IMG/VR virus record: IMGVR_UViG_3300032046_000010
Span: 1 to 64,000 of that record
Reading direction: 5' to 3' (one strand)
Source of the DNA: a virus
DNA: 64,000 bases
Every line of letters begins with the position of its first letter. Within the stretch, counting starts at the first letter, position 1. The position numbers and the translations under genes are program-made. Below are positions 15,112 to 41,540 of this stretch, piece by piece. The notes below the pieces were generated by a model. The model was given only the letters and a program-made list of their open reading frames with translations. It made no database searches and was not told where the DNA came from.

Positions 15112-15382
15112 CGCCGTGTCTCCTGGTGAGACCGTCCAGGAACGGGAGGTCATCACGGTCGTCAATCTCAGCAAACGAACGGGTGGACGGCATCGTGAAC
15201 AGACCTGATCCCTTGACGGACGCGATGGGTTGGGACTCCTGCGACTTGATGGCGTGATGCATCTTCATGTTCTCTTTGCGCAGCTCCAAGAACAGCCGCT
15301 CCAGGCCAGCGTACTCACGCCGCCAGAAGCAGTCAAAGCATACGCGTGGCGGCTTCGCCGTCTGTTTGGTACGCTGTACCAC
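15104..15382 (-). CDS. hypothetical protein
   Basis: GGAG RBS; fills the gap. Confidence 0.55.
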   Translation of the reverse strand: MVQRTKQTAKPPRVCFDCFWRREYAGLERLFLELRKENMKMHHAIKSQESQPIASVKGSGLFTMPSTRSFAEIDDRDDLPFLDGLTRRHGDD

Positions 15383-20120: not shown

Positions 20121-20542
20121 CAACCAACCTCGAATGGCGCTGGCTCTGGAACGCCGACCAACGTCACCACAGCATGAGTCGCATTGGACACGATGGACGG
20201 TGTCAAACGCCAAGTATGCGGCCCCACACAATCCAAACCCCAAGCTTGCGGGGCCTGTTCGCCTTCCTTGGGCGGCAGCGGCAATCCTACGCGCACAGGA
20301 AGCGTCAACACTTCCTTCGATGCGAGGCGCAAAATCAACTCGATGCCACGCATCCTCGACCGAACGAACCCGACAAGGTCTCCAGGACGCTCGTCAGTCA
20401 ACACGCCATCTGACCATTGCGCGAACATCGCGTCTCCCACCACCCCGATACCGCGTGCCATTTCAGCGATCTGTTCATCGCTGATGAACAATGCCCCGTG
20501 TTGACCGCAACGTGAACAACACACATCTATCTCTGCTGGCAT
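20120..20542 (-). CDS. hypothetical protein
   Basis: TGATG coupling to sbcD-sbcC; CSRC; WRLTPSI. Confidence 0.6.
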   Translation of the reverse strand: MPAEIDVCCSRCGQHGALFISDEQIAEMARGIGVVGDAMFAQWSDGVLTDERPGDLVGFVRSRMRGIELILRLASKEVLTLPVRVGLPLPPKEGEQAPQAWGLDCVGPHTWRLTPSIVSNATHAVVTLVGVPEPAPFEVG

Positions 20543-21623: not shown

Positions 21624-22599
21624 ACAGTGGCCCCACAACGTCCGCGCCGTGGTTAGGCAGCATACGCCTGCCTCCATCGATGACGGACTTGAAACTGTCC
21701 GTGGACTTCAGCGTCTTGGCCAGTTCCTCCGGCCCATCCACAAACAGAGCATGTTCACCGTGTTTGAGGATGTTGAACGCCGGATCGGAGCAGAGCCACC
21801 CCTTGGCGTTGACCAGGATGGCACCTGCGTCCCACGACTCCAGCGTGGTGTACTGTGGCGCTCCGCCGTCGCCCCTCGCCACGGAGGTCATGTCCACTGA
21901 GAACCGGGCGGCACGGGCGCAGTCAAACCCGCCGTTGGGAGACTTGAACACGCCCATGTAGTCTTGCCGCCAACTGGGAAACTTCGGGTCCAGGTCGTTG
22001 TAGGTGTACACGTTGCTGATCTGGCCCCAGGACTTGATCCGCTTCCCCGGAGGCAACAACAGGTTCGCCGCCGCGATGACCTCCGGGTGCTTGCTCCACT
22101 CGATGCGTGTCATACAGACGGCGTGATACACGATGGACCGCACCGTCGTCGGCTCCGCCGGAGTGTACGGCAGCGGTATGTACACTGACTTGAACCCCTG
22201 CTGCTGGAGCTGGTGTACCAGCACCGGCTTGACGGCGATGATGCGACAGCCAGAGTCCTTGAACACCTTGTAGTTGCCTTTGTGAAGGTCGGTTGGGTCG
22301 TGGACGATCATGGTCGCACCGTTGAGCAACAGTTGTTCCTGGGCTTCCTTGAACTGCCTGTGGTACAGCGTTGCGACGATGCTGGGACCGTCCTTCATCG
22401 CTGTGATGGCGTCCTCCAGCGACAGGTTCCGGTAGGACACGCCGTGAGGGTACTGGCGCAGGCGAGGCTCCGACCGCTTGCGGACTGCGTACACGTTGAC
22501 CTTGTGACCACGATGCTTCAGGACCTTGGTCAACTGGTGCGTGTAGGTCATCGTGCCGCCGACCGGCGGATTGGCGAGCAGATACAGGTTGATGATCAT
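21598..22599 (-). CDS. GT-B-fold glycosyltransferase, candidate DNA glycosyltransferase
   Basis: GGTMTYTHQLTKVLKHRGHKVNVY N-terminus; QYTTLESWDAGAILV donor-binding segment. Confidence 0.75.
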   Translation of the reverse strand: MIINLYLLANPPVGGTMTYTHQLTKVLKHRGHKVNVYAVRKRSEPRLRQYPHGVSYRNLSLEDAITAMKDGPSIVATLYHRQFKEAQEQLLLNGATMIVHDPTDLHKGNYKVFKDSGCRIIAVKPVLVHQLQQQGFKSVYIPLPYTPAEPTTVRSIVYHAVCMTRIEWSKHPEVIAAANLLLPPGKRIKSWGQISNVYTYNDLDPKFPSWRQDYMGVFKSPNGGFDCARAARFSVDMTSVARGDGGAPQYTTLESWDAGAILVNAKGWLCSDPAFNILKHGEHALFVDGPEELAKTLKSTDSFKSVIDGGRRMLPNHGADVVGPLYEDHLKAC

Positions 22600-24839: not shown

Positions 24840-27800
24840 TCACGCTATCCTAGCGCGTGCCTCCAGAACCTTCAGCCGCTCTGCGTCCCTTGACTCCAGT
24901 GTGAATGCATCCCCGTTGTTCGTCGCCCGAACCTCGATGATGTCTCCCACGTTGAACTTCCCCTTGAACGATGGCCAGGATGACCCAAAGCAGATGAGGT
25001 CGATGTAGCCCTTGTATCCCAGCAACCCCATGAAACACATCTCGCTCATCCGCTTGTCGAGCCGGATGTTCATGTGGGTTACAATGCCCACCGCCTTGAA
25101 TCCGCTCTTGGCGTTGCTCGCCGTCTGTTCGATGTCATCCTTGGAGTGCTGCTTGACAGGGTGCCGCCCCTTCAACAACGCCCGTTCAAACACGTCCAAC
25201 GGCTCCCCCGCATCGAGCCTCCGGCGAAGCAAATCCAAGTCTACCATGAAGTGGATCCTGATGGAGTGCCACTTGGCGTCGATGGTAGCGTGGAAAGCAA
25301 CGGGAGTCCCGATGCCCCTGTCGATGATCGGTCTATGCTCATCGAACGTGTCAACGTCAATCTTGGCCCTGTTGTTCTTGCCGCTGATGTCCTCCACGTT
25401 GATGTTGGCGTACCTAGCGCCCCAACGCATCTTCAGTTTGGTTTCCTCGCTGGGAGCCTCGCCGGTATGGAAGTCGCCAATCTGGTTGTACTTGATCTCA
25501 ACCAGGATGCCGTGTAGGAACCCATGCGGACGCGAGTACAGATCCTCATCATCCATCCGCTCCCACTTCACGTTCATCCTGTCGTTCAACAGTTCTTGGT
25601 AGGGAACAAGCGGATGCTTACCACTGGCAAGGGGGCAGACCTCTGCGGCCGTCCACACAGCGTCCTGTTCGCTGTGCTGAGGTTCCTTCCTCGACCGCAA
25701 CAACATCTCCGCCACATCGACATCGCCGCTAGACTTGGCCAGCGCCTTCCAGACATCCTCGATGTGCTCCACGAACCACTTGCGGTTGGGGAACAGCTGA
25801 TCCAGAGCGCCAGAGCGGGCAAGCGCCAACACCACTCCCTTGTGGACCTTCCGCCGGTCCACGCGGCCAATGAAGTCGATGAACGACTTGAACGGTTGTA
25901 CCGCCTCGATGCTCTGCGCCGCTATCCCGCCACACCCCTTCACATCCACGAGCGAACCCAGGATGTCGGGTCCGTCGATGATGTAGCTGGCCTTGCTGCG
26001 GTTGATGTCCGGCAGCTTGACCTTGATGCCCAGCCGGTCGGCTTCCTTGACGTACCTACGGATGGCTTGTTCGTCCGGCTCGCAAGACAACAGCGCCCAC
26101 ATGAACTCGATGGGATAGTACGTCTTGAGGAACATCTCACGATAGCTGATGAGCCCGTAAGCAGTGGAGTGCGACTTGTTGAATCCGTATGAACCAAACA
26201 TCGTGATCTGGTCCATCAGCTTCGCAGCCAACACCGGATCATGCCCCCTCGCCGCCGCTCCCTTGATGAAGTTTTCGCGCTCCTTGCCAAGTGCCGCATC
26301 GCCCCACTTCTTGGCGATCTTCTTGCGCAAGCTGTCGGCGGTCCCGGGAGCGAAGCCAGCGAAGTCGGTGAACATCTTGATGACATGCTCTTGGTACACA
26401 ATGACGCCGTAGGTGTCGGAGCAGATCTGGTCCACCAGCGGGTGGATGGTCTTGATCTTGCTAGGGTCCTTTTTGCGCTTCAGATACTCTGCCGCCAGAC
26501 CGCTCCGCGCCGTTCCCGGCCGGTCCAAGGCGATCATCGCGGCCACGTCCTCAAAGCTGGTGAACTGTACGCCCTCGGTGATCTTGTCTGCGCTGGGGGT
26601 ATCGTACTGGAACACGCCCGCGTAAGCATGAGCAGTGAAGTTGGCCAGCACATTCAGGTCGTGAAGGTCGATGCGGTCCCAGTTGATCTCGACCCCATGC
26701 CGTTCCTTCACAGCCTTGAGACAACGCTTCATGACGGTCAGGTTGCGCAACCCCAACACGTCCATCTTCACCAGGCCGACTCCCTGGACGCCGTACATCT
26801 CAAAGCCAGTGATGATCTCCTGCTTCCCGGCCGACTCCCTCATCTCCATTGGGATGATGTCTACCAGCGGAACCGGCGAGACCACGAAGCCCGCCGCGTG
26901 CTTGCCCAATCCCCTGACGTGGCTCTCCAGAACGCGCGCATGCTCCAGGACCTCCGGGTGGCGCTCATTGAACTTGCGGCACACCTCAAAGTCCTTGAAG
27001 CTATCCTCGATGGTCTGGCTGGCCCGCTCGTCACCACTCGACCGCTCGATCACGCTGCTGGTAACCTCGTCAACCTCCGACATCGGTATCTGGAGCACCC
27101 GTGAGATGTCCTTGATGCATTGCTTCCCCTTGAGCGTCATCAGGGTGCTGATCTGGGCTGTCTTGTCCTCCCCGTAGCGGTGTCGCAGGTATGTGAACAC
27201 CTCTTCACGGCGCTCATCCTCAAAGTCCATGTCGATGTCGGGCAGGTCGATGCGGTCTGGGTTGAGGAACCGCTCGAAAATGAGACCGTGTTCGATGGGG
27301 TCGGTGTCCGTGATGTTGAGCAGGTAGCTGACGAAGCACCCGCCCGCGCTCCCCCTCCCGGGTCCACACTCAATGTGAGCATCGTTCTTGGCCCAACGGT
27401 ACAGGTCCCAGACCACCAGGAAGTAGCGCACCACGTTCTGCTTCTTGATGGCCTTCAACTCATGTCGGAGCCGCGCGATGTACTGCTCATGAAGCTCGCT
27501 GGAAGTGATACCGCGCCGGACGGCCAACTCATCGATGCGTCGCGGCATCTCCCGCGACTCCCAACCCACCCAACACAGGTGCATCATGTACTTGAACTCA
27601 TCGTTGTCGAAGTGTTTGGGGATGTCGATGGCCGGGACCAGCGCCTTGAAACGGTCCACTTCAAAGCTGGCCTGGCACTTCTCAGCAATCTCCAGCGTGT
27701 TCAACATTGCCCGCCGGACCTCCGGCTCAGGCATGTAGGGGTGGGAGCGCCGGAACGCATCCAACATCTCATCCCACGTCTTGAGCCAGAAGTCCTGGAC

Positions 27801-28610
27801 GCTGAACTTGAACCTGTCGGGGTTGCTCATGAAGTCGTGAGTGCGGATACACAGCATGACCTCGTGGGTCTTGACGTGCTCCTTCTTGATGTAGTGGGCG
27901 TCCACGGTGGTCACCATCGGTCGGCCGAACCGCTTGTGGTACTTCAGCATCGCCCGGTTGACCATGGCCTGCTCTGGCATATTGGTCGGCTGGATCTCCA
28001 GATAGAAGTCCTCACCAAACAGGTCCACAAACCATTCCATGCGACGGTCGGCCAACTCCTGGTTGCGATGTACGATCTGGTGAGGGACCACACCCTCCAT
28101 ACAGCCGGATAGGACGATCAGCCCCTCGCGGTGCTTCTCCAGGGTCTCCAGGTCGATGCGTGGCCGCTTCCAGAACCCCTCAAGATAGCCCACAGAGGTC
28201 ATCTTGAACAGGTTGAGTAGCCCCACCTGATTCTTGGCCAAGACCGTCAGGTGATACCGTTGGCGGAGGCCCAGCTCAACCTCCCGCTTGTAGATGGCCT
28301 CCCCGATGCCCTTGCGGCCCTTGTTCTCCGCCCTGATCCGCTCGTCATCCTCCGGCGGCAGACCTCGTGCGTGGCGGCTCTCACACAGGTAAAACTCACA
28401 ACCGTAGATTGGCCACGGCCGCGCTTCGGGGTCCATGTTGAACACGTTCTCATGAAGCTTGTATGCTCCACGCATCGAGCCATGTTCTGTGAAGGCGATG
28501 GCCGGGTGCCCCAACTCGACCGTCCTGTTCAGGTAGTCTTGCTGCCGTCCCAAGCCGTCCAACAAGGAATATTCACTGTGTACGTGGAGGTGAACGAATG
28601 GCTTGCTCAT
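24840..28610 (-). CDS. dnaE: DNA polymerase III alpha subunit (family C)
   Basis: HLHVHSEYSLLDG, GPGRGSAGG, PDIDMDF, KMDVLGL, YGFNKSHS. Confidence 0.96.
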   Translation of the reverse strand: MSKPFVHLHVHSEYSLLDGLGRQQDYLNRTVELGHPAIAFTEHGSMRGAYKLHENVFNMDPEARPWPIYGCEFYLCESRHARGLPPEDDERIRAENKGRKGIGEAIYKREVELGLRQRYHLTVLAKNQVGLLNLFKMTSVGYLEGFWKRPRIDLETLEKHREGLIVLSGCMEGVVPHQIVHRNQELADRRMEWFVDLFGEDFYLEIQPTNMPEQAMVNRAMLKYHKRFGRPMVTTVDAHYIKKEHVKTHEVMLCIRTHDFMSNPDRFKFSVQDFWLKTWDEMLDAFRRSHPYMPEPEVRRAMLNTLEIAEKCQASFEVDRFKALVPAIDIPKHFDNDEFKYMMHLCWVGWESREMPRRIDELAVRRGITSSELHEQYIARLRHELKAIKKQNVVRYFLVVWDLYRWAKNDAHIECGPGRGSAGGCFVSYLLNITDTDPIEHGLIFERFLNPDRIDLPDIDMDFEDERREEVFTYLRHRYGEDKTAQISTLMTLKGKQCIKDISRVLQIPMSEVDEVTSSVIERSSGDERASQTIEDSFKDFEVCRKFNERHPEVLEHARVLESHVRGLGKHAAGFVVSPVPLVDIIPMEMRESAGKQEIITGFEMYGVQGVGLVKMDVLGLRNLTVMKRCLKAVKERHGVEINWDRIDLHDLNVLANFTAHAYAGVFQYDTPSADKITEGVQFTSFEDVAAMIALDRPGTARSGLAAEYLKRKKDPSKIKTIHPLVDQICSDTYGVIVYQEHVIKMFTDFAGFAPGTADSLRKKIAKKWGDAALGKERENFIKGAAARGHDPVLAAKLMDQITMFGSYGFNKSHSTAYGLISYREMFLKTYYPIEFMWALLSCEPDEQAIRRYVKEADRLGIKVKLPDINRSKASYIIDGPDILGSLVDVKGCGGIAAQSIEAVQPFKSFIDFIGRVDRRKVHKGVVLALARSGALDQLFPNRKWFVEHIEDVWKALAKSSGDVDVAEMLLRSRKEPQHSEQDAVWTAAEVCPLASGKHPLVPYQELLNDRMNVKWERMDDEDLYSRPHGFLHGILVEIKYNQIGDFHTGEAPSEETKLKMRWGARYANINVEDISGKNNRAKIDVDTFDEHRPIIDRGIGTPVAFHATIDAKWHSIRIHFMVDLDLLRRRLDAGEPLDVFERALLKGRHPVKQHSKDDIEQTASNAKSGFKAVGIVTHMNIRLDKRMSEMCFMGLLGYKGYIDLICFGSSWPSFKGKFNVGDIIEVRATNNGDAFTLESRDAERLKVLEARARIA

Positions 28611-29260
28611 GCTTTGTAACCGCTGTCTTCCATCCACTTGATAATCAGCGCCTTCAGGTCCTCACCGAAGTCCTCACGAAGCACCCATCGCAGGTAGTCT
28701 CGCTGATCCGGTCCCTCGACCACCAGCTGTGATACACGCTTCCCGCGATGTTGACCAAACATCAACACCGCATCCGGCTCCGACTCGCGGCCGGTTGGAC
28801 CTCCGACCTCAACCCATTTGGTTGGCTTCGGCTTCGTGACCAATGCCACGCGCCCCAAGATGCCGCGCCCGCACTTCTTGAACCTCCCGAAGCTAGCCAC
28901 CCTGACCGGCCTGAAACCATCCGCCTCCATCTGCTTGGCCCGCTCTTCATCGGACTTGGCGAATGCTTCCGACAGTGTGTTGCCGCAGTTGGGATGGGAC
29001 GGAGGTGTGGCCAAAATCCCGGCCACAGGATTCACTGCCCCCATCATGGGGATGTCAGGGATGCCGGTCTTTGGGCCTTTCTGCTGTGAAGGCTCCGGCT
29101 TGGACTCCGGTACAGGCACCAACCACTCAACAGCATCCTGCGTGGAAGCATCCACTTCCTGCGTGGGCTTCGGCTCCGGGTCAGGCCGCGCTTCCGGCTC
29201 CGGCTCCGCCTTGGGAGCCTGACCGCTGTAGCGCTGCCGTACCTCATCAAGCGTCGGCAT
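28607..29260 (-). CDS. hypothetical protein with N-terminal MPTL motif and C-terminal DUF3820/ExoX-C-like domain
   Basis: LMFGQHRGKRVSQL...DYLRWVL; TGATG-coupled start. Confidence 0.7.
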   Translation of the reverse strand: MPTLDEVRQRYSGQAPKAEPEPEARPDPEPKPTQEVDASTQDAVEWLVPVPESKPEPSQQKGPKTGIPDIPMMGAVNPVAGILATPPSHPNCGNTLSEAFAKSDEERAKQMEADGFRPVRVASFGRFKKCGRGILGRVALVTKPKPTKWVEVGGPTGRESEPDAVLMFGQHRGKRVSQLVVEGPDQRDYLRWVLREDFGEDLKALIIKWMEDSGYKA

Positions 29261-29880
29261 CAGCCCACCGCCAGCAGTTCCTTGGCTCGTTGAAGGGTCG
29301 CAGACCGATCCAGGCCTGTCGTGTCCAGTCTGTAGACCTCCAAGCCCTCGACCCACGATACAGCCTCACAACACTTGGAGATCAGCTCAGCCTCCCTCGA
29401 CATCCACCCCTTCAAGCTCAACCCCATCTCTTCAGCACGCCCCAAGATGCGCGCTGGGAAGATCCTGTCGCCCGTCCGCTCCATCCTCTTGTTGAGGTCA
29501 CAGACCAGTTCCAGAACAACTCCATGCGCATCCCGCAACATCCGACCCCAGACGGCTGCGACCTCCCCGCCTTGCCCCTCCGGCAAACAAGTGAACACAT
29601 GATCCAGATCCATCGCATTGTAGGCAAGCGCTGAAGGCATCCCACGGTCACAGATCACGTCCGGCCGGAGCGCCCGAAACACGTCCATCTGGAACATGTC
29701 CTCGACCCACGTGTTGACCGGGAACACGGAGTGGATGCTGACCGGAAGGATGGAGCCGGGGGTGTGGTCGTCGCCGTCGCGTCTGAAGCTGCGGTACAAC
29801 GGGCGGTTGATGTCCTTGGACAGCGCTTTCCCCAGCGTGGTCTTGCCGGTCCCGATGCCGCCTTCCAACACGATGATCAT
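29260..29880 (-). CDS. P-loop deoxynucleotide monophosphate kinase-like protein
   Basis: IIVLEGGIGTGKTT; VICDRG.PSALAY. Confidence 0.8.
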   Translation of the reverse strand: MIIVLEGGIGTGKTTLGKALSKDINRPLYRSFRRDGDDHTPGSILPVSIHSVFPVNTWVEDMFQMDVFRALRPDVICDRGMPSALAYNAMDLDHVFTCLPEGQGGEVAAVWGRMLRDAHGVVLELVCDLNKRMERTGDRIFPARILGRAEEMGLSLKGWMSREAELISKCCEAVSWVEGLEVYRLDTTGLDRSATLQRAKELLAVG

Positions 29881-31145
29881 GGCTGGCCTCCGAAACAACG
29901 CGATGCCGCCCGGTCCAGTCTGGCCAAGGCTTGCTCCATCAACTCCGGCGGTGAGTTGAGTGGTGGACAGATGCGGAGCGGCCGGTGAGGCAGATGCGCC
30001 ATCAACAGCAGTCCTTCCTCCATCGCCCGATCACGGAAGGCAAAGGCATCGCTGTCTCCCCACTTCGGCGTCAGCGACCAGACCAACCCGGTCCCTTCCG
30101 CCTTGTCCACCCAACGGCGACAAGCGAAGCCGTTGCGCAGAATGGTCTCACAGTTGCGCACGTTCTCCAACACTCCGCGTTCCAAGCCGTCGATCAGCCA
30201 GTTGATGAGGTAGCCCGCCAACAGGTTCCCGCCGAACGTGCTGAAGTGGGTCCCGGGCTCAAAGCCCTTGGATGCTTCCTCCGTCGCCAAGCAAGCTCCG
30301 GCCGGGATGCCCATCGCCAACCCCTTGGCCAACGTGAGGATGTCCGGCTTGAACCGCTCGCCGCTCACGTCGGTGACAGCCGGGTTCATCCAAGCACACG
30401 GATAGCCGGTGCGCCCCATCCCCGACTGAACTTCATCGAAGATCACCAGGAACCCGTGCTTGGCCCGAAGCTCCGACAACCTGGACCAAAACACGGGGCC
30501 GTAGAAGCGCATCTGGTTGTGCGTCAGAACCGGAGACATGATGAGCGCCGCAATATCGGGCCAGTTGATGAGGAATCTCGCATCCGAAGGAACCTCAGAC
30601 GGTGTGGTGTGTAGATGGTATGTTTCCAAGTCCTGTTCGGCCATGTAGAATCCAGACGCAAACGGACCAAATCCCTGCTTGTAGTACGGCGTGGCGTTGG
30701 TCTGTGTGGCAGCGAGACTGAACCCTGTGCGACCGTGAAGTTGATCTGGCAATGACAAAATCACCTTGCGCCCTGGCTCCCCCTTGATATGGTGATAGCG
30801 CCTCGCCAGCTTGATGGCGGCTTCATTGGCCTCCGTCCCGCTGTTCGCAAAGAACACACGGTCCATGCCGCAGAACGCCGTCAGCCGGTCGGCCGTCGCC
30901 GTCCGTTCCGGCACGTTGTACCCGTTGGACACATGGACAGCCTGGGTGCTGTTGACCATGAAACACTCGATGGCACGCCTGAGATCCGTGTGCCCCAGCG
31001 AGGCCACTCCGCCATCACACCACAGGTCGAAGTATTGCCGGCCGTCCCGGTCGATCAGGAACCCATCAGCCGCGCCTTCGATGGTGGGCTCCAACGGCGG
31101 GAGCGAAGTGCGGATCAACGACCTGGGGTCAGCCTTCCCGCCCAT
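29877..31145 (-). CDS. class-III PLP-dependent aminotransferase
   Basis: NSGTEANEAA, HGRT, FDEVQSGMGRTG, PDILTLAKG, STFGGN. Confidence 0.92.
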   Translation of the reverse strand: MGGKADPRSLIRTSLPPLEPTIEGAADGFLIDRDGRQYFDLWCDGGVASLGHTDLRRAIECFMVNSTQAVHVSNGYNVPERTATADRLTAFCGMDRVFFANSGTEANEAAIKLARRYHHIKGEPGRKVILSLPDQLHGRTGFSLAATQTNATPYYKQGFGPFASGFYMAEQDLETYHLHTTPSEVPSDARFLINWPDIAALIMSPVLTHNQMRFYGPVFWSRLSELRAKHGFLVIFDEVQSGMGRTGYPCAWMNPAVTDVSGERFKPDILTLAKGLAMGIPAGACLATEEASKGFEPGTHFSTFGGNLLAGYLINWLIDGLERGVLENVRNCETILRNGFACRRWVDKAEGTGLVWSLTPKWGDSDAFAFRDRAMEEGLLLMAHLPHRPLRICPPLNSPPELMEQALARLDRAASRCFGGQP

Positions 31146-31149
31146 GACA

Positions 31150-32115
31150 TCATTCTCCCTTCGGCTTGGACCAACGGAACGGGTCGTGCCCCCACAGTTC
31201 CGCGTAGCCTGCGATGCGATCAACCGTGTCCTGATCCCCAGTCACTTCCCCGATCAGGTCGCCGTCCGGCTGGCGTCCGTGGTTCTCACAGTCGGCCACG
31301 AGGTACAGCGGGCAGGGCGCATGAGCATCCGACCCGTCGATGCGTCGCTGGTTCTCCAGGCGGTAGACGCAAGCGTTGAAGGTGTCGGTCAGCTTGTCCA
31401 CGCACGGTGGTGCGATGACCCGCCGGAACAGTGGGTCCACCTTGCGCTCCAGCTCAGCAACGATACCACGGATGATGGGTCCCCACAGACCGTATTGCAG
31501 GATCCAGCAGGACCGCTCCCCGATGATGTGGAGCAGAGCCGCCAGGTTGAGCGACCATGAGATGCGGTGCGTGGCCCCCAACGGGATCACGTCCCTGGCA
31601 TCCTCCATCGGCACGCCCGCCTCGACCAGTGCGTTGTAGGACCGCTCCGCCGATGCCATCGCCTGTTCGAACAGCGCAGCCGCCTTCGGTCGTTGGAACA
31701 CAGCATCGGCCGTCCTGTACTGCCCCTTCCTGGCGAACTCACCCATGCTCTGGATACGCATCGACTGCGACCAGAACCCGCTCTTGGCTAGGTCGGGCAC
31801 GATGTCAAGTCCCATCCGCTCCGGCGAGGCGCAGACGCCGATGCGGTGACGCACCATCTGCTCACGGAAGGACACCGACACGTCCTCCAGCATGAACACG
31901 AACCCCACGTGCTCAGCGATGGGGATGCGCTGCTCCAGGATCTGGAGGAACAGAGCATCGACCTCCCGCTTGAAGTCGGGGTCTTGGTTGCGCTTCAGTG
32001 CCAGCGCATCAGGCAGCATCAGCTGTTCCTCGCCCTTGCTGGCCTGCCAGACCGTGTAGATGGTCTCGACCGGGTTGCGGGTGCACGACAACAACGTCGC
32101 CTTGGGGTCGCTCAT
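31150..32115 (-). CDS. thyX: FAD-dependent thymidylate synthase homolog (divergent)
   Basis: EH.GFVF, EQMVRHR, SQSMR, GVPMEDARDVIP. Confidence 0.85.
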   Translation of the reverse strand: MSDPKATLLSCTRNPVETIYTVWQASKGEEQLMLPDALALKRNQDPDFKREVDALFLQILEQRIPIAEHVGFVFMLEDVSVSFREQMVRHRIGVCASPERMGLDIVPDLAKSGFWSQSMRIQSMGEFARKGQYRTADAVFQRPKAAALFEQAMASAERSYNALVEAGVPMEDARDVIPLGATHRISWSLNLAALLHIIGERSCWILQYGLWGPIIRGIVAELERKVDPLFRRVIAPPCVDKLTDTFNACVYRLENQRRIDGSDAHAPCPLYLVADCENHGRQPDGDLIGEVTGDQDTVDRIAGYAELWGHDPFRWSKPKGE

Positions 32116-33083
32116 CCTTCCACCTTCCTGTACTTGTCCTTGATGGCCTGCTCTGCCCTTCTGGCGACGATGCGCAGGACATCAACCCAGTCCCTCGCCC
32201 GCTCGATGTTCGAGCCGTCCGCCAGCCCTTGGTTGTTGGGCTGGTCGAACATGATGGTGTGGACACCGTGTCTGGACAGTTCCCAGACCTCACGAGGCAT
32301 GTCGTCCACGGCCGCGATCACCGTCGCCGGAGCTATGCGTCTGGTGATGGCGTCCCACTTGTCGTGATCGAACAGCAGCAAGTCCCGCTGGAACCCGTGC
32401 TCATCCAACCAGTCCGTCGTGTCGAGGTACAAGCGGGGGTACTCACGCACCGGCCGCGCCGTCAACACCACGACCTTGACACCCAGTTCACGTATCAATG
32501 CGATGGCATCCGCCGCTCCAGGGATAGGCTTGAGCTTCCGCAACGCTCCGGTCTGGTACAACTCACGCCTGTGATCCAAGTAGGCTTGCGCCTTCGCAGA
32601 ATCGCCCTCCGGCACCGGGCCGATCATGCCTTGTGTCGCCGGGTCGCCCAGGAAGTCGGCCAACACACCATCCAAGTCGGTGACGAACACCAGCGTGCCC
32701 TCGCGCAGCTTGACCTGCTCTGCCTCCCACCGTTGGGCAACCGTCCGCGTCTTGGCGTGGAAGCCCTCACACCATTCACAACCCTGGATGCCGCAGGTCA
32801 GCAACACAGCGATGATGTACTTGAACGTGTCCACTGCTTCCTCAATCACCCGCTCCCGGTCAGCCGGTCGGGCAGAGGCCAACAAATGGTAGCGTGATCG
32901 GTCGGTGGCCTTCTGAAGCTCCGCCAGTTCCTCGTGCGCTCCCAACAGCAAATCCTTGATCAGCAATGCCCGCTGGTCCGGGTCCAGCTGTGCCGCATCG
33001 TGCCACAGACGCTGTTGTTCTGCTTGCGCTGCCCATAGCTTCAGGATGGGGCAATCGTCGCCTACCTTCAAGTCACAGGCCAT
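32112..33083 (-). CDS. dimeric dUTPase/MazG-like domain fused to a HAD 5'-nucleotidase-like domain
   Basis: EELAEL...IEEAVD; DLDGVLADF; AVDD. Confidence 0.8.
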   Translation of the reverse strand: MACDLKVGDDCPILKLWAAQAEQQRLWHDAAQLDPDQRALLIKDLLLGAHEELAELQKATDRSRYHLLASARPADRERVIEEAVDTFKYIIAVLLTCGIQGCEWCEGFHAKTRTVAQRWEAEQVKLREGTLVFVTDLDGVLADFLGDPATQGMIGPVPEGDSAKAQAYLDHRRELYQTGALRKLKPIPGAADAIALIRELGVKVVVLTARPVREYPRLYLDTTDWLDEHGFQRDLLLFDHDKWDAITRRIAPATVIAAVDDMPREVWELSRHGVHTIMFDQPNNQGLADGSNIERARDWVDVLRIVARRAEQAIKDKYRKVEG

Positions 33084-34050
33084 TCGCCGCCCTCCACCGC
33101 TCCGCCCGCTCCAACGCCTTGTCCATCGTCATCCGGGGGTCCCATTGAGCGAACCGGCCCAACACCAACACGTTGGACGGATGCTGGAACACCGGAACCT
33201 CCCCGAACACATGAGCGGTGCGGATGTATCGCGGCTTGCCGACAATGCTGGCGTCGGAGCCGAACACAGAGTTCACGTCCAACATCAGCGCCCGCTCCGA
33301 CACACCTTCAGCGTTGTAGGCTCCGTCTGGCAGCGGTGACAAGCGATACAGGGAGTTGCCCGGCGTGTACGGCGTGTACACGAAGTCCCAGTCCACGAAG
33401 TCCCGACAGGATGGCGCTTCAACCCTCGCCATGTAGGCGTCTGAAGCATGGAGCGGAACCGGCGAACGGATGCCCAGCATCGACAACGTCAGTGGTAGCG
33501 GCAGCGTCCAGACCAGATGGCTGTACTCCAAGTGTTCCTGGTCGTCGCCGCTCAGGGCCGACCGGCGAACGTCCAGTGTGTTCGCTCCTGGGTACCAAGC
33601 CACAACTCCCTTGCGCAACACCTTGACTCGGTCCTCCACAGCCCGCCCCAACGCTCCCACGGACACCATGTACCGCTGCGGGCCTGCTTGCCCGCCCTCG
33701 TTCATCGCTGTGTCGTGGAACCCATAGGTGGTCCGGCGAGTCTTGGTGTAGTGGTGAAGCACAAACTGGCGCAACGGTTCCTTCCCGAAGTGGTCGGCCG
33801 CAGCCTTGAATGAGTACACACGCCCCTTCAGATACAGGCCAGAACGCACAGCCCGCTGCTCACATCGGATACCCCAGACCTTGAAAGTGCTGTCGAACAG
33901 TTCTGACTGATGGATGTAGAACAGCCCGCCTCCGCCGGGGTTGCCCCCGGTTCCAAGCGGGTCGATGACAGTGACCTCGTGGTGTTTGGCCAGCACCAGA
34001 GCCGCTGCGACTCCGGCCGGGCCTCCGCCCACGATGATGATCGGCTTCAT
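33073..34050 (-). CDS. FAD-dependent oxidoreductase/mutase (UDP-galactopyranose mutase-like superfamily)
   Basis: IIVGGGPAG; LVWTLP; LGRFAQW...MDKAL C-terminal motif. Confidence 0.8.
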   Translation of the reverse strand: MKPIIIVGGGPAGVAAALVLAKHHEVTVIDPLGTGGNPGGGGLFYIHQSELFDSTFKVWGIRCEQRAVRSGLYLKGRVYSFKAAADHFGKEPLRQFVLHHYTKTRRTTYGFHDTAMNEGGQAGPQRYMVSVGALGRAVEDRVKVLRKGVVAWYPGANTLDVRRSALSGDDQEHLEYSHLVWTLPLPLTLSMLGIRSPVPLHASDAYMARVEAPSCRDFVDWDFVYTPYTPGNSLYRLSPLPDGAYNAEGVSERALMLDVNSVFGSDASIVGKPRYIRTAHVFGEVPVFQHPSNVLVLGRFAQWDPRMTMDKALERAERWRAANGL

Positions 34051-35159
34051 GGCGGGGCCTCCAACGGTGGCGGCTGGTTGCGTGGCGGGGGCATCTCCAG
34101 GATGCCTTCACGCATCATCCGCCCGATCAGCTTGGCAGCCGCTCGGGCAAGGTCGGGAGTCCGCACGCCTCGCCAAGCAACCGGCATCGCCGGGTCCGTC
34201 AACTGCTTCAGCTTGGCTCCCGGTAGCGCCAAAGCCTTGTCCCAAGTGGTGCTGAACGCGATGTCCAACCGCTTGGCCAGAGGCTTCAGCTTGATCACGC
34301 AGACCTTGGCATAATGGCCGCTCGTGGCGATGTACACAGTGATGTAGTTTGACTTGTCAGTCACACGGTTGACGAACACGTCGCCCGGGAGCGCCCCGCT
34401 GCGCTTGGCCTTCCAATCGTACCCCAACCTGAACAGAGACAACTGGAGCCGCTTCAGGAAAGCATCGACCAGCGGTTCAAGGTCGCTGAACCGCCCTGGA
34501 TCGGTCGGCCGCTTCCGCTTCTCACGCTTCACCAACTTGGCCACCAGCGTGCCCTTGGCCTTCCCGGTCGCCTTCGGAACCACGATGGCAGGTGGCGTGA
34601 TCTTGTTGATGTACTTCCGCTCGATGTCGGCCAGTTCCACGTTGAGCGCATGAGGGTCCGTCCGCTCATCCATGAACCGCTCCGCCGTCAAGGAGTGTTC
34701 CATCAGGTACAGCTTCAGCGAGTAGCAGCGCGCACGCCAAGTACAAGCCGACTCGACATGCCCAGACGCCTTGTTGTAGCCTCCGTCGCAGGTCGAACAG
34801 TGGTCATGGTAGCCCAGGCACTCAGGTACGGTCACCGTCATCCGCGCCTCCTGCTGCGGGAAGCCTACGTCATCAATCCACGGGATGGGAATCGAATCTT
34901 CAATGCCGTCATTGCCCCTTACCCTGAACTCATCCCAGCACACCTGGCCGACCATCACCAACGTTGAAGCCCACCCGGCATCCCCGTCGCTCACGAACGC
35001 CACTTGGCCCCAACAGTAGCGTTCTGTGTTGATCGTCCGCTTCCCATCCTTCCATGAGGCCCATCCGCCGGGCATCGGCTTCGGGCCTAGACTGTGACGC
35101 CGGATGATGCGGGACACGAACCTGAAGTCCAGAGGCTTGATGGACTCGTGGATTGCCAT
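34047..35159 (-). CDS. hypothetical protein with Cys cluster
   Basis: Starts MAIHES immediately after the sigma stop; PECLG...CSTC...C...C. Confidence 0.7.
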   Translation of the reverse strand: MAIHESIKPLDFRFVSRIIRRHSLGPKPMPGGWASWKDGKRTINTERYCWGQVAFVSDGDAGWASTLVMVGQVCWDEFRVRGNDGIEDSIPIPWIDDVGFPQQEARMTVTVPECLGYHDHCSTCDGGYNKASGHVESACTWRARCYSLKLYLMEHSLTAERFMDERTDPHALNVELADIERKYINKITPPAIVVPKATGKAKGTLVAKLVKREKRKRPTDPGRFSDLEPLVDAFLKRLQLSLFRLGYDWKAKRSGALPGDVFVNRVTDKSNYITVYIATSGHYAKVCVIKLKPLAKRLDIAFSTTWDKALALPGAKLKQLTDPAMPVAWRGVRTPDLARAAAKLIGRMMREGILEMPPPRNQPPPLEAPP

Positions 35160-35160
35160 C

Positions 35161-35805
35161 TCAAGCCTCCCGCAAAACCTGACGAGCACGTGCCAGAGCG
35201 GACTTGACCCTGGCGGCCGGGATGCCCAGATGTTCCGCCAACATGTTCTCGGTGATGATCGGCTTCCCGGGTCGAACGTTGCGAGCCATGATCTCCAGTT
35301 CAGGTGGAGGACACAACCGTGCAGACAACACCAGCCGGTCCACCTCATCCAACCGCTGGATGATGCGCTCGGTGACCCAGGCCTGCTGCTCATGTTCCTG
35401 GGTAGCTTCCAAACAGGCTGGGTCCGTCACGTCAGCATCGTTTTCCGCTGTGGAGCCGAACCCGGCCAAGCGCTGGTGCTTGGGAGACACACCATCGCCT
35501 TCATCGATGCGTGGTGCTCGTTTCAGCGCCAGTTCGTAGTTGACGATGGCCAACAGCGCGTTGCGCACAACCAGGTCAACCCAAGTGCGGAGTGCCCGGC
35601 CGCGCTCCGGCTTGTGCGTGGCCACGGCATAGATGGCGGCGATGCGAGCCTCTTGAAGCAGTTCAAAATGGTTCAAACCTGGGATGCGCTTGAACGGACG
35701 CGCCTTGGCATGGATCACGTCCTCCAGTTGAGGCAACAGCTTCGCCAGCGTCGGCTTCAACTCGTCAGGGCATGTCCAGCCTGTAGGAACGATATGCGGT
35801 GCCAC
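35161..35805 (-). CDS. sigma70-family RNA polymerase sigma factor (regions 2 and 4)
   Basis: ELLQEARIAA...KPERG..LRTW...VRN; LAEHLGIPAARVKSALARAR HTH; AGGAGG then GTG start. Confidence 0.8.
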   Translation of the reverse strand: MAPHIVPTGWTCPDELKPTLAKLLPQLEDVIHAKARPFKRIPGLNHFELLQEARIAAIYAVATHKPERGRALRTWVDLVVRNALLAIVNYELALKRAPRIDEGDGVSPKHQRLAGFGSTAENDADVTDPACLEATQEHEQQAWVTERIIQRLDEVDRLVLSARLCPPPELEIMARNVRPGKPIITENMLAEHLGIPAARVKSALARARQVLREA

Positions 35806-37808: not shown

Positions 37809-37828
37809 AGTAAGCGAAAACCAGGCCG
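37809..37828 (-). promoter_or_regulatory. conserved promoter copy 5
   Basis: CGGCCTGGTTTTCGCTTACT. Confidence 0.75.
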
Positions 37829-37842
37829 TTCATCGCCCGCCC

Positions 37843-40041
37843 CTACTGCGCCACCCGACGCACCCGGCCGTTCATCAGCTTCGCCGCCACGGCCTTGAAC
37901 AGCGCCTTGGGGAGCGCCGCCAGATCCCAAACAACCTCCGCATTGCGATAGAAGCTCGTCACCGCATCGCTCTGGATTCCGATTCCCACGACCTCGATGC
38001 CGCGCTTTTCAGTCGCCCGCACCACGTCCTTCAGGTGCCGCCCCTCGATGCTACGCTCACGCTCATTGCGCCGGGTGTAGTTGCCGCTCACGTTGGCGCG
38101 CTTGGGGTCGTAGGTTCCGCCGGTCACGGTCGAAGTCCCGGCCGCAGGTTGACCATCCGACAGGACGATCAGCACCTTCCGCTCCTGGGGCTGCTGCGCC
38201 AGCAGGTCAGCGACCATCTGGAGCGCATCGCCGTCAGCGTTGTTCGCCCGGCCGTTGATCTTCACCAGGCGGGAGCGCACACGCCGGAACTGCTCGCTGA
38301 AGCTCTTGTACTGGTACAGGTGGATCGACTCATTGCGGCCGTTCCACCAGCTTCCAGCGTCCAGCGTGTCGTCATCAGTCGTCACCATCCCGCTGGTGAA
38401 CCCGTAGATTGCGAAGGGCACGTTGAGGGCCGTCAGCGTCTCACCCAGGGCAACCGCCGCCAGCTGGGCCGTCGCCGCCTTGACTCCGCCCATCGAGCCG
38501 GACTCATCAACCAGCACCGCAACCGCCGGGACCTCATCCAGCGTCGTGATCTTGCGGGAGAACACGCGCCGCTCGCCGGTCACCGCCCGGTACAGAGCCG
38601 CGCTGTCCAGCTTCCCTTCCTCCTGGTCGGGGTCGTTCTGGACGTCAGCCTTGCCCTTGAGGACCATCATCAACTTGGAGCGGAGGCCGCCAACGACTCC
38701 CGCGACCATCTGCTTCAGCTGGGCGTAGTGCGCATCGCTGCTCAACTCTTGGACGATGATCTTGTCAGCCGCCTTGGCGCTTGGCCGGGCCACGTAGCGG
38801 CCATCGCTCTGCGCCGCGCTGGAGGCGTCCTTGCTCAGCTGGTCGCGCACCGCGTCCATCATGTCCTTCGCAGCGTCATCGAACAGGTCATCAACCGGCT
38901 TGGAGTCGGTCGGGTCATCATTGATCTTGGTGTTGTCGCTGGCGCCCACGTTGCCGCCCGCCTCGCCGGTCTCAGCCTCGCCACCCTCCTGGTCACCCTG
39001 ATCCTCGCCAGTCCCTTCCTGCTCGCCCTTCCCGGCCGACCCTTCCTGGTTGCCTTCCTCGCCGTCCTCACCCTCAACAGCGCCGTCGTCGCCTTCCTCG
39101 CCCTCGTCACCGCCGTCCTCATCCTCGCCCTCGCCCGCACCACCCTCACCGTCGTCGCCCTCGTCGCCCTCGTCGCCCTCGTCATCCGACTCGCCCTTGG
39201 ACTCGCCCTTGGTGTCCTGCTCGCCGTCCTCAGCACCGTCGTCGCCCGCACCGTCGTCGCCCTCGTCAGCCTCGCCCTCATCACCCTCATCGGCCTTGCC
39301 CTGCTCGCCCTTGCTCTGGGGCTTGGACTCGGGCTTGGACTCGGGCTTGGACTCGGGCTTGGACTCGCCCTGCTCGCCGTCCTGCGACTCCGGCTGGGTC
39401 GGCTGGGTCATCGCGTCCCGCAGCGTCTGCTCAACCAGGTGCATCATCGACTCAACCTTGTCGTACCCAGCGCCGCGAAGCTCCGCCATCCTGGGGAGCA
39501 GCTTGGCAACCGCGCCTTCCAGCCGGGGGTCCAAGGTCACGGCCGACTCACCGAACGACCGGAGATACAGTTCAGAACCGAACCCGTGAAGCCCACTGGT
39601 GTAACCCGGGGTCGCCGCGTTGCGCTTGATCAGCTTGACGCCGTAGCGCCGGAGCGCCGACAGGTTCCGCTCAACGCCCTCAAACGGGTTGCCCATCTCA
39701 TCGTGGATGTCGGCCACGATGTTCAGGATGCTGTGGCGGGTCTTGGAGACCTTCATCGCCTCGGTGATCAGCTCACTCGGCAGCTTCACGGTGGCGCCAG
39801 CCGCCCGCGCCGCAACCGCCGCTTGCTCTTCACGAGCGTGGCAAGTCTCATGGTCCAGCATCCCCTCGACCACCGCCACAACGTCCTCACCCATCTCATC
39901 GACGTTCTCAGGCAGCTGGATCAGCTTCTGGTCGAACAGGAACCGACAGGCGGTCCCGGCCTGGACTACCTTCAACCCGGTGTCGGCGCTGAAGGTCCTG
40001 GCCACCTTCCCCATCGTTCCTTCCTGCGTCCGGTTCTTCAT
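37843..40041 (-). CDS. CobT-like VWA-domain protein with N-terminal HExxH motif and long acidic linker
   Basis: LDHETCH; VLVDESGSM MIDAS; VLSDGQP. Confidence 0.88.
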   Translation of the reverse strand: MKNRTQEGTMGKVARTFSADTGLKVVQAGTACRFLFDQKLIQLPENVDEMGEDVVAVVEGMLDHETCHAREEQAAVAARAAGATVKLPSELITEAMKVSKTRHSILNIVADIHDEMGNPFEGVERNLSALRRYGVKLIKRNAATPGYTSGLHGFGSELYLRSFGESAVTLDPRLEGAVAKLLPRMAELRGAGYDKVESMMHLVEQTLRDAMTQPTQPESQDGEQGESKPESKPESKPESKPQSKGEQGKADEGDEGEADEGDDGAGDDGAEDGEQDTKGESKGESDDEGDEGDEGDDGEGGAGEGEDEDGGDEGEEGDDGAVEGEDGEEGNQEGSAGKGEQEGTGEDQGDQEGGEAETGEAGGNVGASDNTKINDDPTDSKPVDDLFDDAAKDMMDAVRDQLSKDASSAAQSDGRYVARPSAKAADKIIVQELSSDAHYAQLKQMVAGVVGGLRSKLMMVLKGKADVQNDPDQEEGKLDSAALYRAVTGERRVFSRKITTLDEVPAVAVLVDESGSMGGVKAATAQLAAVALGETLTALNVPFAIYGFTSGMVTTDDDTLDAGSWWNGRNESIHLYQYKSFSEQFRRVRSRLVKINGRANNADGDALQMVADLLAQQPQERKVLIVLSDGQPAAGTSTVTGGTYDPKRANVSGNYTRRNERERSIEGRHLKDVVRATEKRGIEVVGIGIQSDAVTSFYRNAEVVWDLAALPKALFKAVAAKLMNGRVRRVAQ
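39319..39366. repeat. 12-bp coding tandem repeat x4 (ESKP)
   Basis: GGGCTTGGACTC x4. Confidence 0.9.
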
Positions 40042-40062
40042 CTTCGCCTCCACGCTCCTACC

Positions 40063-40082
40063 AGTAAGCGAAAACCGGGCCG
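40063..40082 (-). promoter_or_regulatory. conserved promoter copy 6
   Basis: CGGCCCGGTTTTCGCTTACT. Confidence 0.75.
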
Positions 40083-40108
40083 TTTGTGAACGGCCCTGGT
40101 TCCCAGTC

Positions 40109-41361: not shown

Positions 41362-41381
41362 AGTAAGCGAAAACCGGGCCG
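41362..41381 (-). promoter_or_regulatory. conserved promoter copy 7
   Basis: CGGCCCGGTTTTCGCTTACT. Confidence 0.75.
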
Positions 41382-41540
41382 ACCAGCAACCCAAAATGTT
41401 CAGGCTGGGTAACTACTTGGAAACGCCCGATTCCAGCATTTTCTATGGGCATCGAGCCGATCCTAGCTGTTGAACTGATCTTCCCTTCCTTCCTTCTAGG
41501 GCCACCGCTTGGTGGCGGTTGTGGGTCGGAGCCAGCCCAG

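Follow-up and report, generated by a model that had tools for sequence, protein, structure and literature searches.

The first 64 kb (64,000 nucleotides) of a 93,062-bp virus record in IMG/VR (IMGVR_UViG_3300032046_000010; 91% complete according to CheckV) was analysed, and this whole stretch is referred to as the window. Almost all of the real genes between 17 and 42 kb are on the minus strand, including a module of five genes at 29260-34050 that code for a flavoprotein, a fusion of a MazG-like domain with an NT5C-type deoxyribonucleotidase, the flavin-dependent thymidylate synthase ThyX, a class-III aminotransferase and a kinase resembling thymidylate kinase (Tmk) and deoxynucleoside kinases (dNK). 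The module had been proposed earlier, from inspection of the sequence, as a candidate operon for DNA hypermodification (hereafter the original prediction), consisting of five tightly packed genes one open reading frame (ORF) away from dnaE. All five ORFs are real and were found at the predicted positions, with one small ORF in between (Table 1).

The genes follow each other closely. The junction between the upstream 448-aa ORF and the flavoprotein gene is an ATGA overlap of stop and start codons, and the same overlap recurs between the fusion and ThyX genes, between the aminotransferase and kinase genes, and between the small ORF and dnaE. The kinase gene and the small ORF overlap in TGATG, the flavoprotein and fusion genes overlap by 11 nt, and a gap of 4 nt separates the ThyX and aminotransferase genes. 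Because of the ATGA overlap with the small ORF, the start of dnaE was moved to the ATG at 28610, which is likely its true start. GGAGG-like ribosome sites precede most starts in the module. The terminator-like sites inside it do not exceed five stem pairs: there are two such minimal stems, and one of the two lies at 30872-30857 on the minus strand. The series from the upstream ORF through dnaE is thus predicted to form one translationally coupled chain.

Table 1. Genes and domains of the five-gene module and of its immediate neighbours.
Feature	Position	Strand	Basis or remark
Flavoprotein, 325 aa	33073..34050	-	FAD (flavin adenine dinucleotide)-Rossmann N-terminal motif; predicted fold of UDP-galactopyranose mutase (UGM)/protoporphyrinogen oxidase (PPO)/amine oxidase
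Fusion protein, N-terminal all-alpha MazG-like domain (residues 1 to ~125)	32709..33083	-	invariant residues, profile matches
Fusion protein, C-terminal NT5C-type 5'(3')-deoxyribonucleotidase domain of the haloacid dehalogenase (HAD) type	32112..32708	-	PF06941
ThyX, phage 'Cys4' subfamily	31150..32115	-	PF02511
Class-III (omega-) aminotransferase, 422 aa	29877..31145	-	PF00202; true ATG at 31145
P-loop kinase, Tmk/dNK superfamily, ~206 aa from ATG at 29880	29260..29880	-	phrog_761
Small ORF between kinase gene and dnaE	28607..29260	-	weak ExoX-like C-terminal match (NF005937, residues 196-244, E 0.002)
DnaE-type DNA polymerase III alpha	24840..28610	-	PHP, DNA_pol3_alpha, finger and HHH_6 domains; phrog_405
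ORF upstream of flavoprotein, 448 aa, no family match	34047..35393	-	stop overlaps flavoprotein start (ATGA)

Related loci were collected from IMG/VR via the aminotransferase, ThyX and flavoprotein, and were scored by tblastn and custom profile hidden Markov models. A single-sequence pattern search of viral contigs had given no match, and an alignment-based search was used instead; a DNA search of GenBank phages with the 6-kb region also gave no match, and no GenBank phage is close to the window, the identity being at most 28% for ThyX and 35% for DnaE. The five genes are contiguous in about 30 IMG/VR loci representing about 21 distinct lineages, with contigs of up to 116 kb and GC contents from 0.35 to 0.66. 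Three internal orders were found, flavoprotein-fusion-ThyX-aminotransferase-kinase, flavoprotein-fusion-aminotransferase-ThyX-kinase and flavoprotein-fusion-aminotransferase-kinase-ThyX, with the contiguity kept in all. With contiguity kept in so many viral loci, the arrangement is not due to chance, and the doubt raised with the original prediction, that the genes might not be co-conserved in relatives, is thereby removed. Every remodelled aminotransferase found (see below) adjoins ThyX and the kinase, and it is accompanied by the flavoprotein and the fusion protein in all cases in which flanks or a whole genome were available for searching, a locus cut at the contig start (L067) not being assessable for these two. 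The dependency is asymmetric, because the aminotransferase is missing from some loci with ThyX and from some with the flavoprotein. A late tailoring enzyme, of which the substrate needs the other genes, would show this pattern. Five lineages insert an additional gene, the product of which is about 265 aa long and resembles methyltransferases weakly (Pfam E 1e-4 and 9e-3); no solved relative was detected for it by profile search.

The aminotransferase matches PF00202 with 195.8 bits (1e-57), and its pyridoxal phosphate (PLP)-binding lysine K274 and D-E-V-Q motif (D237, Q240) are invariant. Among solved structures it is closest to those of acetylornithine, succinylornithine, ornithine and putrescine aminotransferases, the nearest being an acetylornithine aminotransferase (AcOAT 2eh6, 2e-77). 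It stays, however, under the cut-offs for ArgD (NF002325, the best NCBIfam model, 230 vs 372 bits; TIGR00707, 226 vs 410 bits). In the window protein, and in nearly all of the 24 other module-linked sequences, A/S-P-V-L/F-G-N-N stands in place of the Glu-switch motif E-P-I-Q-G-E-G-G; three of the 24 have just part of the new motif. Across this clade of about 25 divergent members, three further active-site motifs are altered, about 20 residues are inserted, and the C-terminal carboxylate-binding Arg varies between Arg and Lys. The switch Glu is kept in five cellular ArgD sequences and in other viral class-III enzymes, including more distant ones with no ThyX nearby. These features mark a clade that is confined to viruses, descends from the ArgD/AstC/OAT group and has a rebuilt substrate site. 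With active-site changes this systematic relative to ArgD in about 25 members, the enzyme should have a new substrate; because the Glu switch and the other motifs are remodelled clade-wide, it is not a recently captured argD. One objection to the original prediction, that the gene merely stands in for argD, thus loses its force, all the more as every member found adjoins ThyX and the kinase. The aminotransferase matches among GenBank phages do not seem to belong to this clade and are more likely argD/astC genes of host origin or from contamination.

The fusion protein (323 aa, 32112-33083) carries in its N-terminal part the all-alpha MazG-type signature EExxE...EExxD / D..K, invariant in a 12-member alignment (E51, E52, E55, D85 and K88). 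The profile of this domain matched the solved structures of YpjD (2gta, 2e-4), MazG-like proteins (2q73 and 5ie9) and HisE at E values of 2e-4 to 3e-2. It is probably too divergent for the Pfam MazG model (PF03819), which at E <= 1 in the genome scan left the N-terminal region unmatched and hit just another weak site, at 8997-9140. The C-terminal domain scored 38.3 bits with PF06941 (cut-off, 24.8), carries the full HAD motifs (D136-x-D138-GVLAD, T208, K242 and D260/D261), and among solved structures is nearest to the human cytosolic and mitochondrial 5'(3')-deoxyribonucleotidases (cdN and mdN, 6e-5). The two domains are fused in every locus found. Taken together, the protein should convert a deoxynucleoside triphosphate (dNTP) to the monophosphate (dNMP) and then to the nucleoside. 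The case for an enzyme that destroys dNTPs is therefore stronger than originally stated, since a dNTPase is fused here to a dNMPase.

The kinase displays the invariant residues G-x-x-G-x-GK, D79-R80-x-x-P83-S84-x-x-x-Y88 and R136, corresponding to the Tmk-type DRxxxSxxAY motif and the LID arginine. It matches phrog_761 ('thymidylate kinase', 1e-10) and, among PDB profiles, SPbeta YorR (9e-9), Tmk (6e-6) and dNK (1e-4). It lies under the dTMP-kinase equivalog cut-off (TIGR00041, 21.3 vs 83.25 bits). No relation to the 5-hydroxymethyl-deoxyuridine (5-hmdU) DNA kinase of phage PaMx11 was detected.

ThyX was identified by PF02511 with 74.9 bits (cut-off, 24.8; 75.5 bits in the genome scan). It resembles canonical ThyX proteins such as those of Thermotoga maritima (TM0449), PBCV-1 and Mycobacterium tuberculosis in this domain, in its fold, in the RHR motif and in the dUMP-binding Arg/Ser/Gln residues; Q86, R89-H90-R91, S118, R120, R174 and R201 are invariant in the clade and correspond to T. 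maritima Q75, R78-H79-R80, S88, R90, R147 and R174. It differs from the canonical proteins in falling under the TIGR02170 equivalog cut-off (57.0 vs 87.9 bits), in an insertion of about 22 aa after RHR, and in what appears to be a C-terminal Cys4 domain, an extension of about 100 aa that holds the invariant residues C203, C238, C249 and C268 and is missing from the T. maritima sequence. The four widely spaced cysteines could form a metal or Fe-S site. In the structural model (mean confidence score pLDDT 74; insertion and C-terminus of low confidence), all matches listed by Foldseek are flavin-dependent thymidylate synthases (E about 2e-7, target-normalised TM-score about 0.58), led by T. maritima ThyX, with Thermus thermophilus Thy1 (6j61) at rank 14.

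The flavoprotein gave no match in Pfam, NCBIfam or PDB sequences beyond its N-terminal FAD dinucleotide motif. The alignment of its family shows the invariant motifs GxGxxG, HYxKTR, MND, YTPYTP and GRFAQWDPRxTxD. An AF2 model (pLDDT 76.5) matched renalase, UGM, L-amino-acid oxidase and PPO at about 1e-11 by Foldseek, and VIA-align gave Z scores of 19.9 for UGM, 18.5 for PPO, 18.4 for PF1083 and 17.9 for a carotenoid desaturase, with polyamine, putrescine and monoamine oxidases also among its matches. The lead of UGM is small, about 1.5 Z above PPO, and PPO, PF1083 and the desaturases are effectively tied with it. The C-terminal GRFAxW...D motif resembles what we take to be a UGM motif; no match to the Pfam GLF domain was found in the protein. 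In the ESM Atlas the protein falls into virus-only clusters, of which the nearest named families are Amino_oxidase/PPO. The model shows the two-domain FAD fold of the GR2 superfamily, with the N-terminal GxGxxG and a putative C-terminal FAD-anchoring motif. The protein thus represents a virus-only family of the UGM/PPO/amine-oxidase (GR2) superfamily, with no single family standing out.

All three roles that the original prediction had expected, a thymidylate synthase homologue, a kinase of the dNMP type and an enzyme destroying dNTPs, are present in the operon, and this combination is the classical set of phages that replace thymine. Phage enzymes that destroy dTMP or dTTP are exemplified by the SP5C dTMP nucleotidase, the PBS2 dTMPase and the phi-e dTTPase. 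A scan of the genome found no match to ThyA (PF00303) at E <= 1 and no dCMP deaminase, trimeric dUTPase or ribonucleotide reductase, so that the module constitutes the entire nucleotide metabolism of the phage. An omega-aminotransferase requires an aldehyde, a ketone or an amine, and canonical nucleotides have none; an oxidoreductase must therefore create the carbonyl, and the flavoprotein is present in the same module. Next to a dTMP synthase and a dTMP kinase the dNTPase-nucleotidase fusion would be futile, unless thymidine nucleotides are to be removed or the nucleoside is wanted.

Based on these considerations, the operon may remodel the deoxypyrimidine pool before replication and make an aminated C5-substituted dUMP, a reading that we place first only tentatively and that may well prove wrong. 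ThyX would add one carbon at C5 of dUMP, giving either dTMP, to be oxidised later, or a hydroxymethyl intermediate. The flavoprotein would raise the C5 carbon to the aldehyde (5-formyl-dUMP), the remodelled aminotransferase would turn the aldehyde into a primary amine (5-aminomethyl-dUMP), and the Tmk-like kinase would phosphorylate the new dNMP for use by the phage DnaE. The fused dNTPase-dNMPase would clear the competing canonical nucleotide, from dTTP through dTMP to thymidine, and the methyltransferase-like extra gene of the five relatives could methylate the amine. The evidence consists of the identity of the genes by family or fold, their coupling, their co-conservation and the dependency pattern, and from these we infer every substrate and the fate of every product. 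The stronger form of this reading, in which a widespread lineage of uncultured DnaE-type phages polymerises C5-aminated deoxyuridylate (most simply 5-aminomethyl-dUMP, in some members also methylated) into DNA, a dTTPase-dTMPase removing the thymidine nucleotides, is rather unlikely. The module is a good lead for laboratory work, not a demonstrated pathway.

Parts of this route have precedents. In aminoglycoside biosynthesis, the FAD dehydrogenase GenQ and the class-III aminotransferase GenB1 convert CH2OH through CHO to CH2NH2 (PMC4039129), and the pair Neo11/Neo18 likewise combines a flavin dehydrogenase with a class-III aminotransferase for the conversion of alcohol to aldehyde to amine. 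The substrates of GenQ/GenB1 are, however, aminoglycoside sugars, the GenQ family differs from the PPO/UGM-fold protein of the module, and the kinship in sequence is limited to PF00202. This precedent strengthens the first of the two routes in the original prediction, conversion of a C5-oxidised pyrimidine to an aldehyde or ketone by the flavoenzyme followed by transamination, which is weakened in turn by the generic occurrence of ThyX and the separability of the flavoprotein (see below). In the tRNA pathway of MnmEG and MnmC, from 5-carboxymethylaminomethyluridine (cmnm5U) through 5-aminomethyluridine (nm5U) to 5-methylaminomethyluridine (mnm5U), a flavin- and folate-dependent one-carbon transfer to C5, an FAD oxidoreductase and an aminomethyl product are combined as in the proposed route, and the optional methylation by S-adenosylmethionine (SAM) parallels the extra gene of the five relatives. 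That pathway acts on tRNA, its enzymes belong to the GidA and DAO families, and the amine is derived from glycine or ammonium, not by transamination. The compound 5-aminomethyl-dU is itself an intermediate in phage DNA, made post-replicatively in PaMx11 by unrelated enzymes (PMC8989533).

Phages T4 (hydroxymethyl-dC) and SPO1, SP8 and phi-e (hydroxymethyl-dU) resemble the module in having a thymidylate synthase homologue acting on dNMP, a phage dNMP kinase and hydrolysis of the competing dNTP or dNMP, all beside replication genes. In contrast to the module, with ThyX and no ThyA, they use ThyA-fold hydroxymethylases; they also have neither a flavoprotein nor an aminotransferase, and the predicted dNTPase and dNMPase are fused only in the module. 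In phages M6, ViI, PaMx11 and PhiW-14, thymine is hypermodified post-replicatively via the 5-hydroxymethyluridine DNA kinase 5-HMUDK, aGPT-Pplase, and tailoring enzymes dependent on PLP, FAD or radical SAM (PMC8989533, PMC5889632). These systems share with the proposed route the tailoring of a one-carbon substituent on uracil C5 by FAD and PLP enzymes, and with the module the variable tailoring genes around a conserved core and a hydrolase of the HD or MazG type near a thymidylate synthase homologue. The module lacks, however, homologues of 5-HMUDK, aGPT-Pplase, the PaMx11 FAD lyase and the ThyA-type hydroxymethylase. Its kinase is of the Tmk/dNK type, so that any chemistry would take place on free nucleotides whereas the hypermodification phages act on DNA, and its PLP enzyme is an omega-aminotransferase instead of a decarboxylase. 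A parallel for ThyX is phage SP-15, for which a ThyX-family hydroxymethylase was hypothesised but never tested (PMC5977210); this protein, gp130, is a second Thy1-family protein of that phage and was proposed as a hydroxymethyl-uridylate synthase feeding uracil hypermodification. The SP-15 tailoring genes (146-155) are unrelated in kind to those of the module. The originally claimed novelty of a ThyX-based modification is thereby reduced.

Several observations weigh against the formation of an aminated dUMP. The first group concerns ThyX. The clade comprises at least 349 metagenomic homologues and is absent from 185,579 species genomes, for which reason neither a clue to the host nor a prophage was obtained. 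Of 48 loci with a ThyX of this clade, 16 have none of the other four genes nearby, except that L057 has a kinase and L064 and L065 show a marginal kinase match of 20 bits. Three PolA-type phage genomes (93-100% complete) encode such a ThyX, 35-52% identical and including the four cysteines and the insertion, with no aminotransferase or flavoprotein anywhere in them. A Cys4 ThyX is also encoded by the cultured Pseudomonas phage Banzai, a Pbunavirus (L092, PV661111, 5998-6915); this protein has the C-terminal extension with its four cysteines but not the insertion of about 22 aa. The catalytic residues and the four cysteines are kept in ThyX of every context, Banzai included. The clade is thus a broad phage subfamily, of which the seemingly remodelled active site is a signature, and most simply an ordinary dTMP synthase, and its status as sole thymidylate synthase in the complete PolA-type genomes argues indirectly for dTMP as the product. 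The original assumption of a ThyX peculiar to the pathway is not borne out by its occurrence in complete genomes without the other genes and in Pbunavirus.

The second group concerns the flavoprotein and the integrity of the set. In the complete genome G006 (104 kb), the flavoprotein stands alone directly upstream of dnaE (L115 7980-12867, IMGVR_UViG_3300028610_002211), overlapping the dnaE start and following DnaC/DnaB/DnaG-like genes; the whole record has no ThyX, no aminotransferase and no MazG-NT5C fusion. Phage Banzai holds a remote relative of the flavoprotein, annotated as 'putative flavoenzyme', that matches the family profile at both termini (E 2e-6), and it has no aminotransferase. 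As the flavoprotein is found without the aminotransferase in G006 and in Pbunavirus, its job is independent of that enzyme, and its position beside dnaE suggests a replication-linked role for this virus-only family. Enzymes of the PPO/amine-oxidase fold usually oxidise C-N or C-C bonds, and alcohol dehydrogenases of the GenQ type belong to a different flavoprotein family. The complete genome G005 (101 kb) splits the set: ThyX, aminotransferase and kinase lie together about 25 kb from the fusion gene, dnaE and a divergent, weakly matching ORF that represents the flavoprotein. Because of this split, the five genes are two sub-modules, flavoprotein plus MazG-NT5C, staying by dnaE, and ThyX plus aminotransferase plus kinase, moving together.

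The third group concerns the DNA itself. No ORF of the genome resembles PaMx11 gp46 (aGPT-Pplase), gp47 (FAD lyase), gp49 (5-hmdU DNA kinase) or gp51 (ThyA-type hydroxymethylase); with gp46 and gp49, phmmer and blastp against all six-frame ORFs gave a best E of 0.67, the positive control having worked, and kinship to the PaMx11 hypermodification enzymes was ruled out by these homology searches. Restriction palindromes are strongly avoided genome-wide, T-containing ones included. GATC occurs 452 times against 787 expected and CATG 317 times against 640 (z about -22 for both), GTCGAC, CTCGAG and TCCGGA are absent (33, 26 and 42 expected, respectively), and so is CCGCGG (26-42 expected), GCCGGC being found 21 times against 118 expected. 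Over 40 kb, the avoidance of six-mers is near equal for A/T-containing and GC-only sites (mean z, -2.6 and -3.1), whereas in 40 kb of PaMx11, which hypermodifies T, it is concentrated on GC-only sites (-6.4 vs -1.7). Module-bearing relatives show no consistent T-specific relief from palindrome avoidance. The pattern argues modestly against a shielding of the DNA at thymines and weakens the original prediction, the T-containing palindromes being avoided as strongly as the GC-only ones. The result is not decisive, because small 5-substituents protect poorly against restriction and because the control is a single known-modified genome over 40 kb, which also avoids some T-containing sites.

These same observations, the generic ThyX, the lone flavoprotein beside dnaE, the split set in G005 and the avoidance of sites without T-specific relief, are in favour of a phage with canonical DNA, an explanation that is itself doubtful and stands nearly level with the aminated dUMP. 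ThyX and the Tmk-like kinase, a common pairing in phages, would supply dTTP, the MazG-NT5C fusion would sanitise or rebalance the pool (e.g. by removal of dUTP or damaged dNTPs), and the flavoprotein and aminotransferase would be auxiliary enzymes of the replication period with separate roles not touching bases. This account, however, leaves the rebuilt omega-aminotransferase, found solely beside ThyX and the kinase, without a function. It also leaves a dUMP/dTMP-preferring NT5C-dNTPase fusion in a futile cycle with a dTMP synthase and dTMP kinase, and the contiguity that survives three permutations of order also speaks against it.

A pathway at the level of the sugar or nucleoside is less probable again. 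In that case MazG-NT5C would free the deoxynucleoside, the flavoprotein would oxidise its 5' or 3' hydroxyl, and the aminotransferase would make an amino-deoxynucleoside, which the kinase may phosphorylate, giving a small-molecule effector or an unusual DNA precursor; we regard both the pathway and such a product as improbable. The flavoprotein always directly adjoins MazG-NT5C, in G005 as well, and a fusion whose reaction ends at the nucleoside suggests that this is the compound required. The kinase resembles deoxynucleoside kinases no less than Tmk, nucleoside-antibiotic pathways have aminotransferases for nucleoside 5'-aldehydes, and the flavoprotein has its best structural match in UGM, which acts on a nucleotide sugar, although that match lies within about 1.5 Z of PPO and the desaturases. 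There is, however, no known precedent in phages, and such a pathway does not account for a split set in which the aminotransferase stays with ThyX and not with the flavoprotein.

Quite improbable, in our estimate, is a function in polyamine or amino-acid metabolism, where the aminotransferase and the amine-oxidase-fold flavoprotein would tune the amines that serve as DNA counter-ions and would merely be co-expressed with replication genes. The nearest solved relatives of the aminotransferase (putrescine, ornithine and acetylornithine aminotransferases), the polyamine, putrescine and monoamine oxidases among the fold matches of the flavoprotein, and a weak spermidine-synthase-like ORF at 6933-7841 are in its favour. 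The aminotransferase has nevertheless lost the Glu switch and the adjoining substrate motifs and stays by ThyX and the kinase even after relocation, and the flavoprotein has its own invariant Arg/Lys-rich motifs, presumably not an aromatic cage.

The second route of the original prediction, in which the glycosyltransferase at 21598-22599 would glycosylate DNA with a furanose or amino sugar from a donor made by a mutase-like flavoenzyme and the aminotransferase, must be considered very improbable. In its favour, the flavoprotein matches UGM best in structure (Z 19.9), and a GT-B-like ORF and a PIG-L de-N-acetylase (4674-5444) are present in the genome. The former matches PF13439 weakly (E 0.0012) and, along with the glycosylase of the uracil-DNA glycosylase (UDG) superfamily at 14545-15174 (PF03167, 1e-25), was confirmed as originally noted. 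The glycosyltransferase has no counterpart in any related locus, where the gene for single-stranded-DNA-binding protein is followed directly by that for RecA, and is therefore not co-conserved. No Pfam GLF match and no sugar-nucleotide nucleotidyltransferase or dehydratase was seen. Aminotransferases for sugar nucleotides belong to the DegT family, not to class III. Two further readings were rejected: a tetrapyrrole pathway (HemL-like aminotransferase, PPO-like flavoprotein and CobS/CobT-like genes), as the aminotransferase groups with ArgD/OAT and not with HemL, the PPO similarity is only at the level of fold, and phage CobST pairs are common; and pyrimidine catabolism (nucleotidase, flavoprotein and beta-alanine-type aminotransferase), as dihydropyrimidinase and ureidopropionase are missing.

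The synthesis of an aminated dUMP and its incorporation into DNA, if true, would be the first ThyX-based and the first transaminase-based pathway of DNA base modification; to our knowledge, all characterised phage pathways of pyrimidine replacement or hypermodification start from ThyA-fold enzymes and include no transaminase. If a modified dNTP is made, the module would offer a new enzymatic route to non-canonical DNA together with new reagents, namely a kinase and a polymerase accepting the base and a selective dNTPase-dNMPase fusion, and about 21 IMG/VR lineages and hundreds of metagenomic ThyX relatives would be flagged as carriers of altered DNA missed by sequencing surveys. Even with canonical DNA, the virus-only rebuilt omega-aminotransferase clade tied to ThyX, the virus-only flavoprotein family tied to dnaE, and the phage-wide Cys4 ThyX subfamily, which includes easily studied therapeutic Pbunavirus phages, are worthy of note.

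The distribution of the Cys4 extension extends from uncultured DnaE- and PolA-type phages (L053, L061, L073 and others) to the cultured Pbunavirus. In L053 (7297-12774, IMGVR_UViG_3300032516_000043), ThyX lies just upstream of PolA, with similar layouts in L061 and L064, and in the PolA-type phages ThyX is preceded by genes for a nucleoside-2-deoxyribosyltransferase-like protein, a YfbR-like HD 5'-deoxynucleotidase and a radical-SAM/SPASM protein. L053 and L073 resemble PaMx11 in that the avoidance of palindromes falls mainly on GC-only sites. The PolA-type ThyX phages may be better candidates for thymine modification than the lineage of the window itself. One ThyX homologue (P0199, 458 aa) carries Hint/intein Pfam domains, and DnaE is 1570-1620 aa long in L002 (11832-16703), L004 (12564-17330) and L014 (11796-16511) as compared with about 1265-1300 elsewhere. 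Inteins probably interrupt replication and nucleotide genes in this phage lineage.

As for the neighbours of the module, the small ORF is probably a replication accessory protein outside the metabolic set, and its counterpart in L015 matches PF20600. The upstream 448-aa ORF is probably regulatory and is listed in Table 1 solely for its translational coupling; its counterpart in L007 (4169-5311) shows a weak sigma-70 region-2 match (PF04542, E 2e-5). Further upstream of the operon, 37843-41323 codes for a CobT-like von Willebrand factor A protein (761 aa) and a CobS/MoxR-like AAA+ protein (404 aa), the latter with an N-terminal match to a Ros/MucR-like zinc finger, and the pair is located in the same position in most relatives. 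Three terminator-like hairpins are located at gene junctions on the minus strand (37822-37839, 40077-40096 and 41374-41394), each followed by the same GGTTTTCGCT-type tail.

Elsewhere in the window, the PIG-L/LmbE-type de-N-acetylase at 4674-5444 was identified at 5e-21, an MT-A70 adenine methylase at 13465-14109 at 1e-23, and the weak spermidine-synthase-like ORF with a class-I methyltransferase fold at 2.5e-5; on comparison, the last proved unrelated to the accessory gene of the five lineages. A single ORF of 1046 aa at 17103-20243 combines an Mre11/SbcD-type metallophosphoesterase with a Rad50/SbcC-type ATPase and thus represents a fused SbcCD, and segments matching it lie downstream of RecA in relatives.

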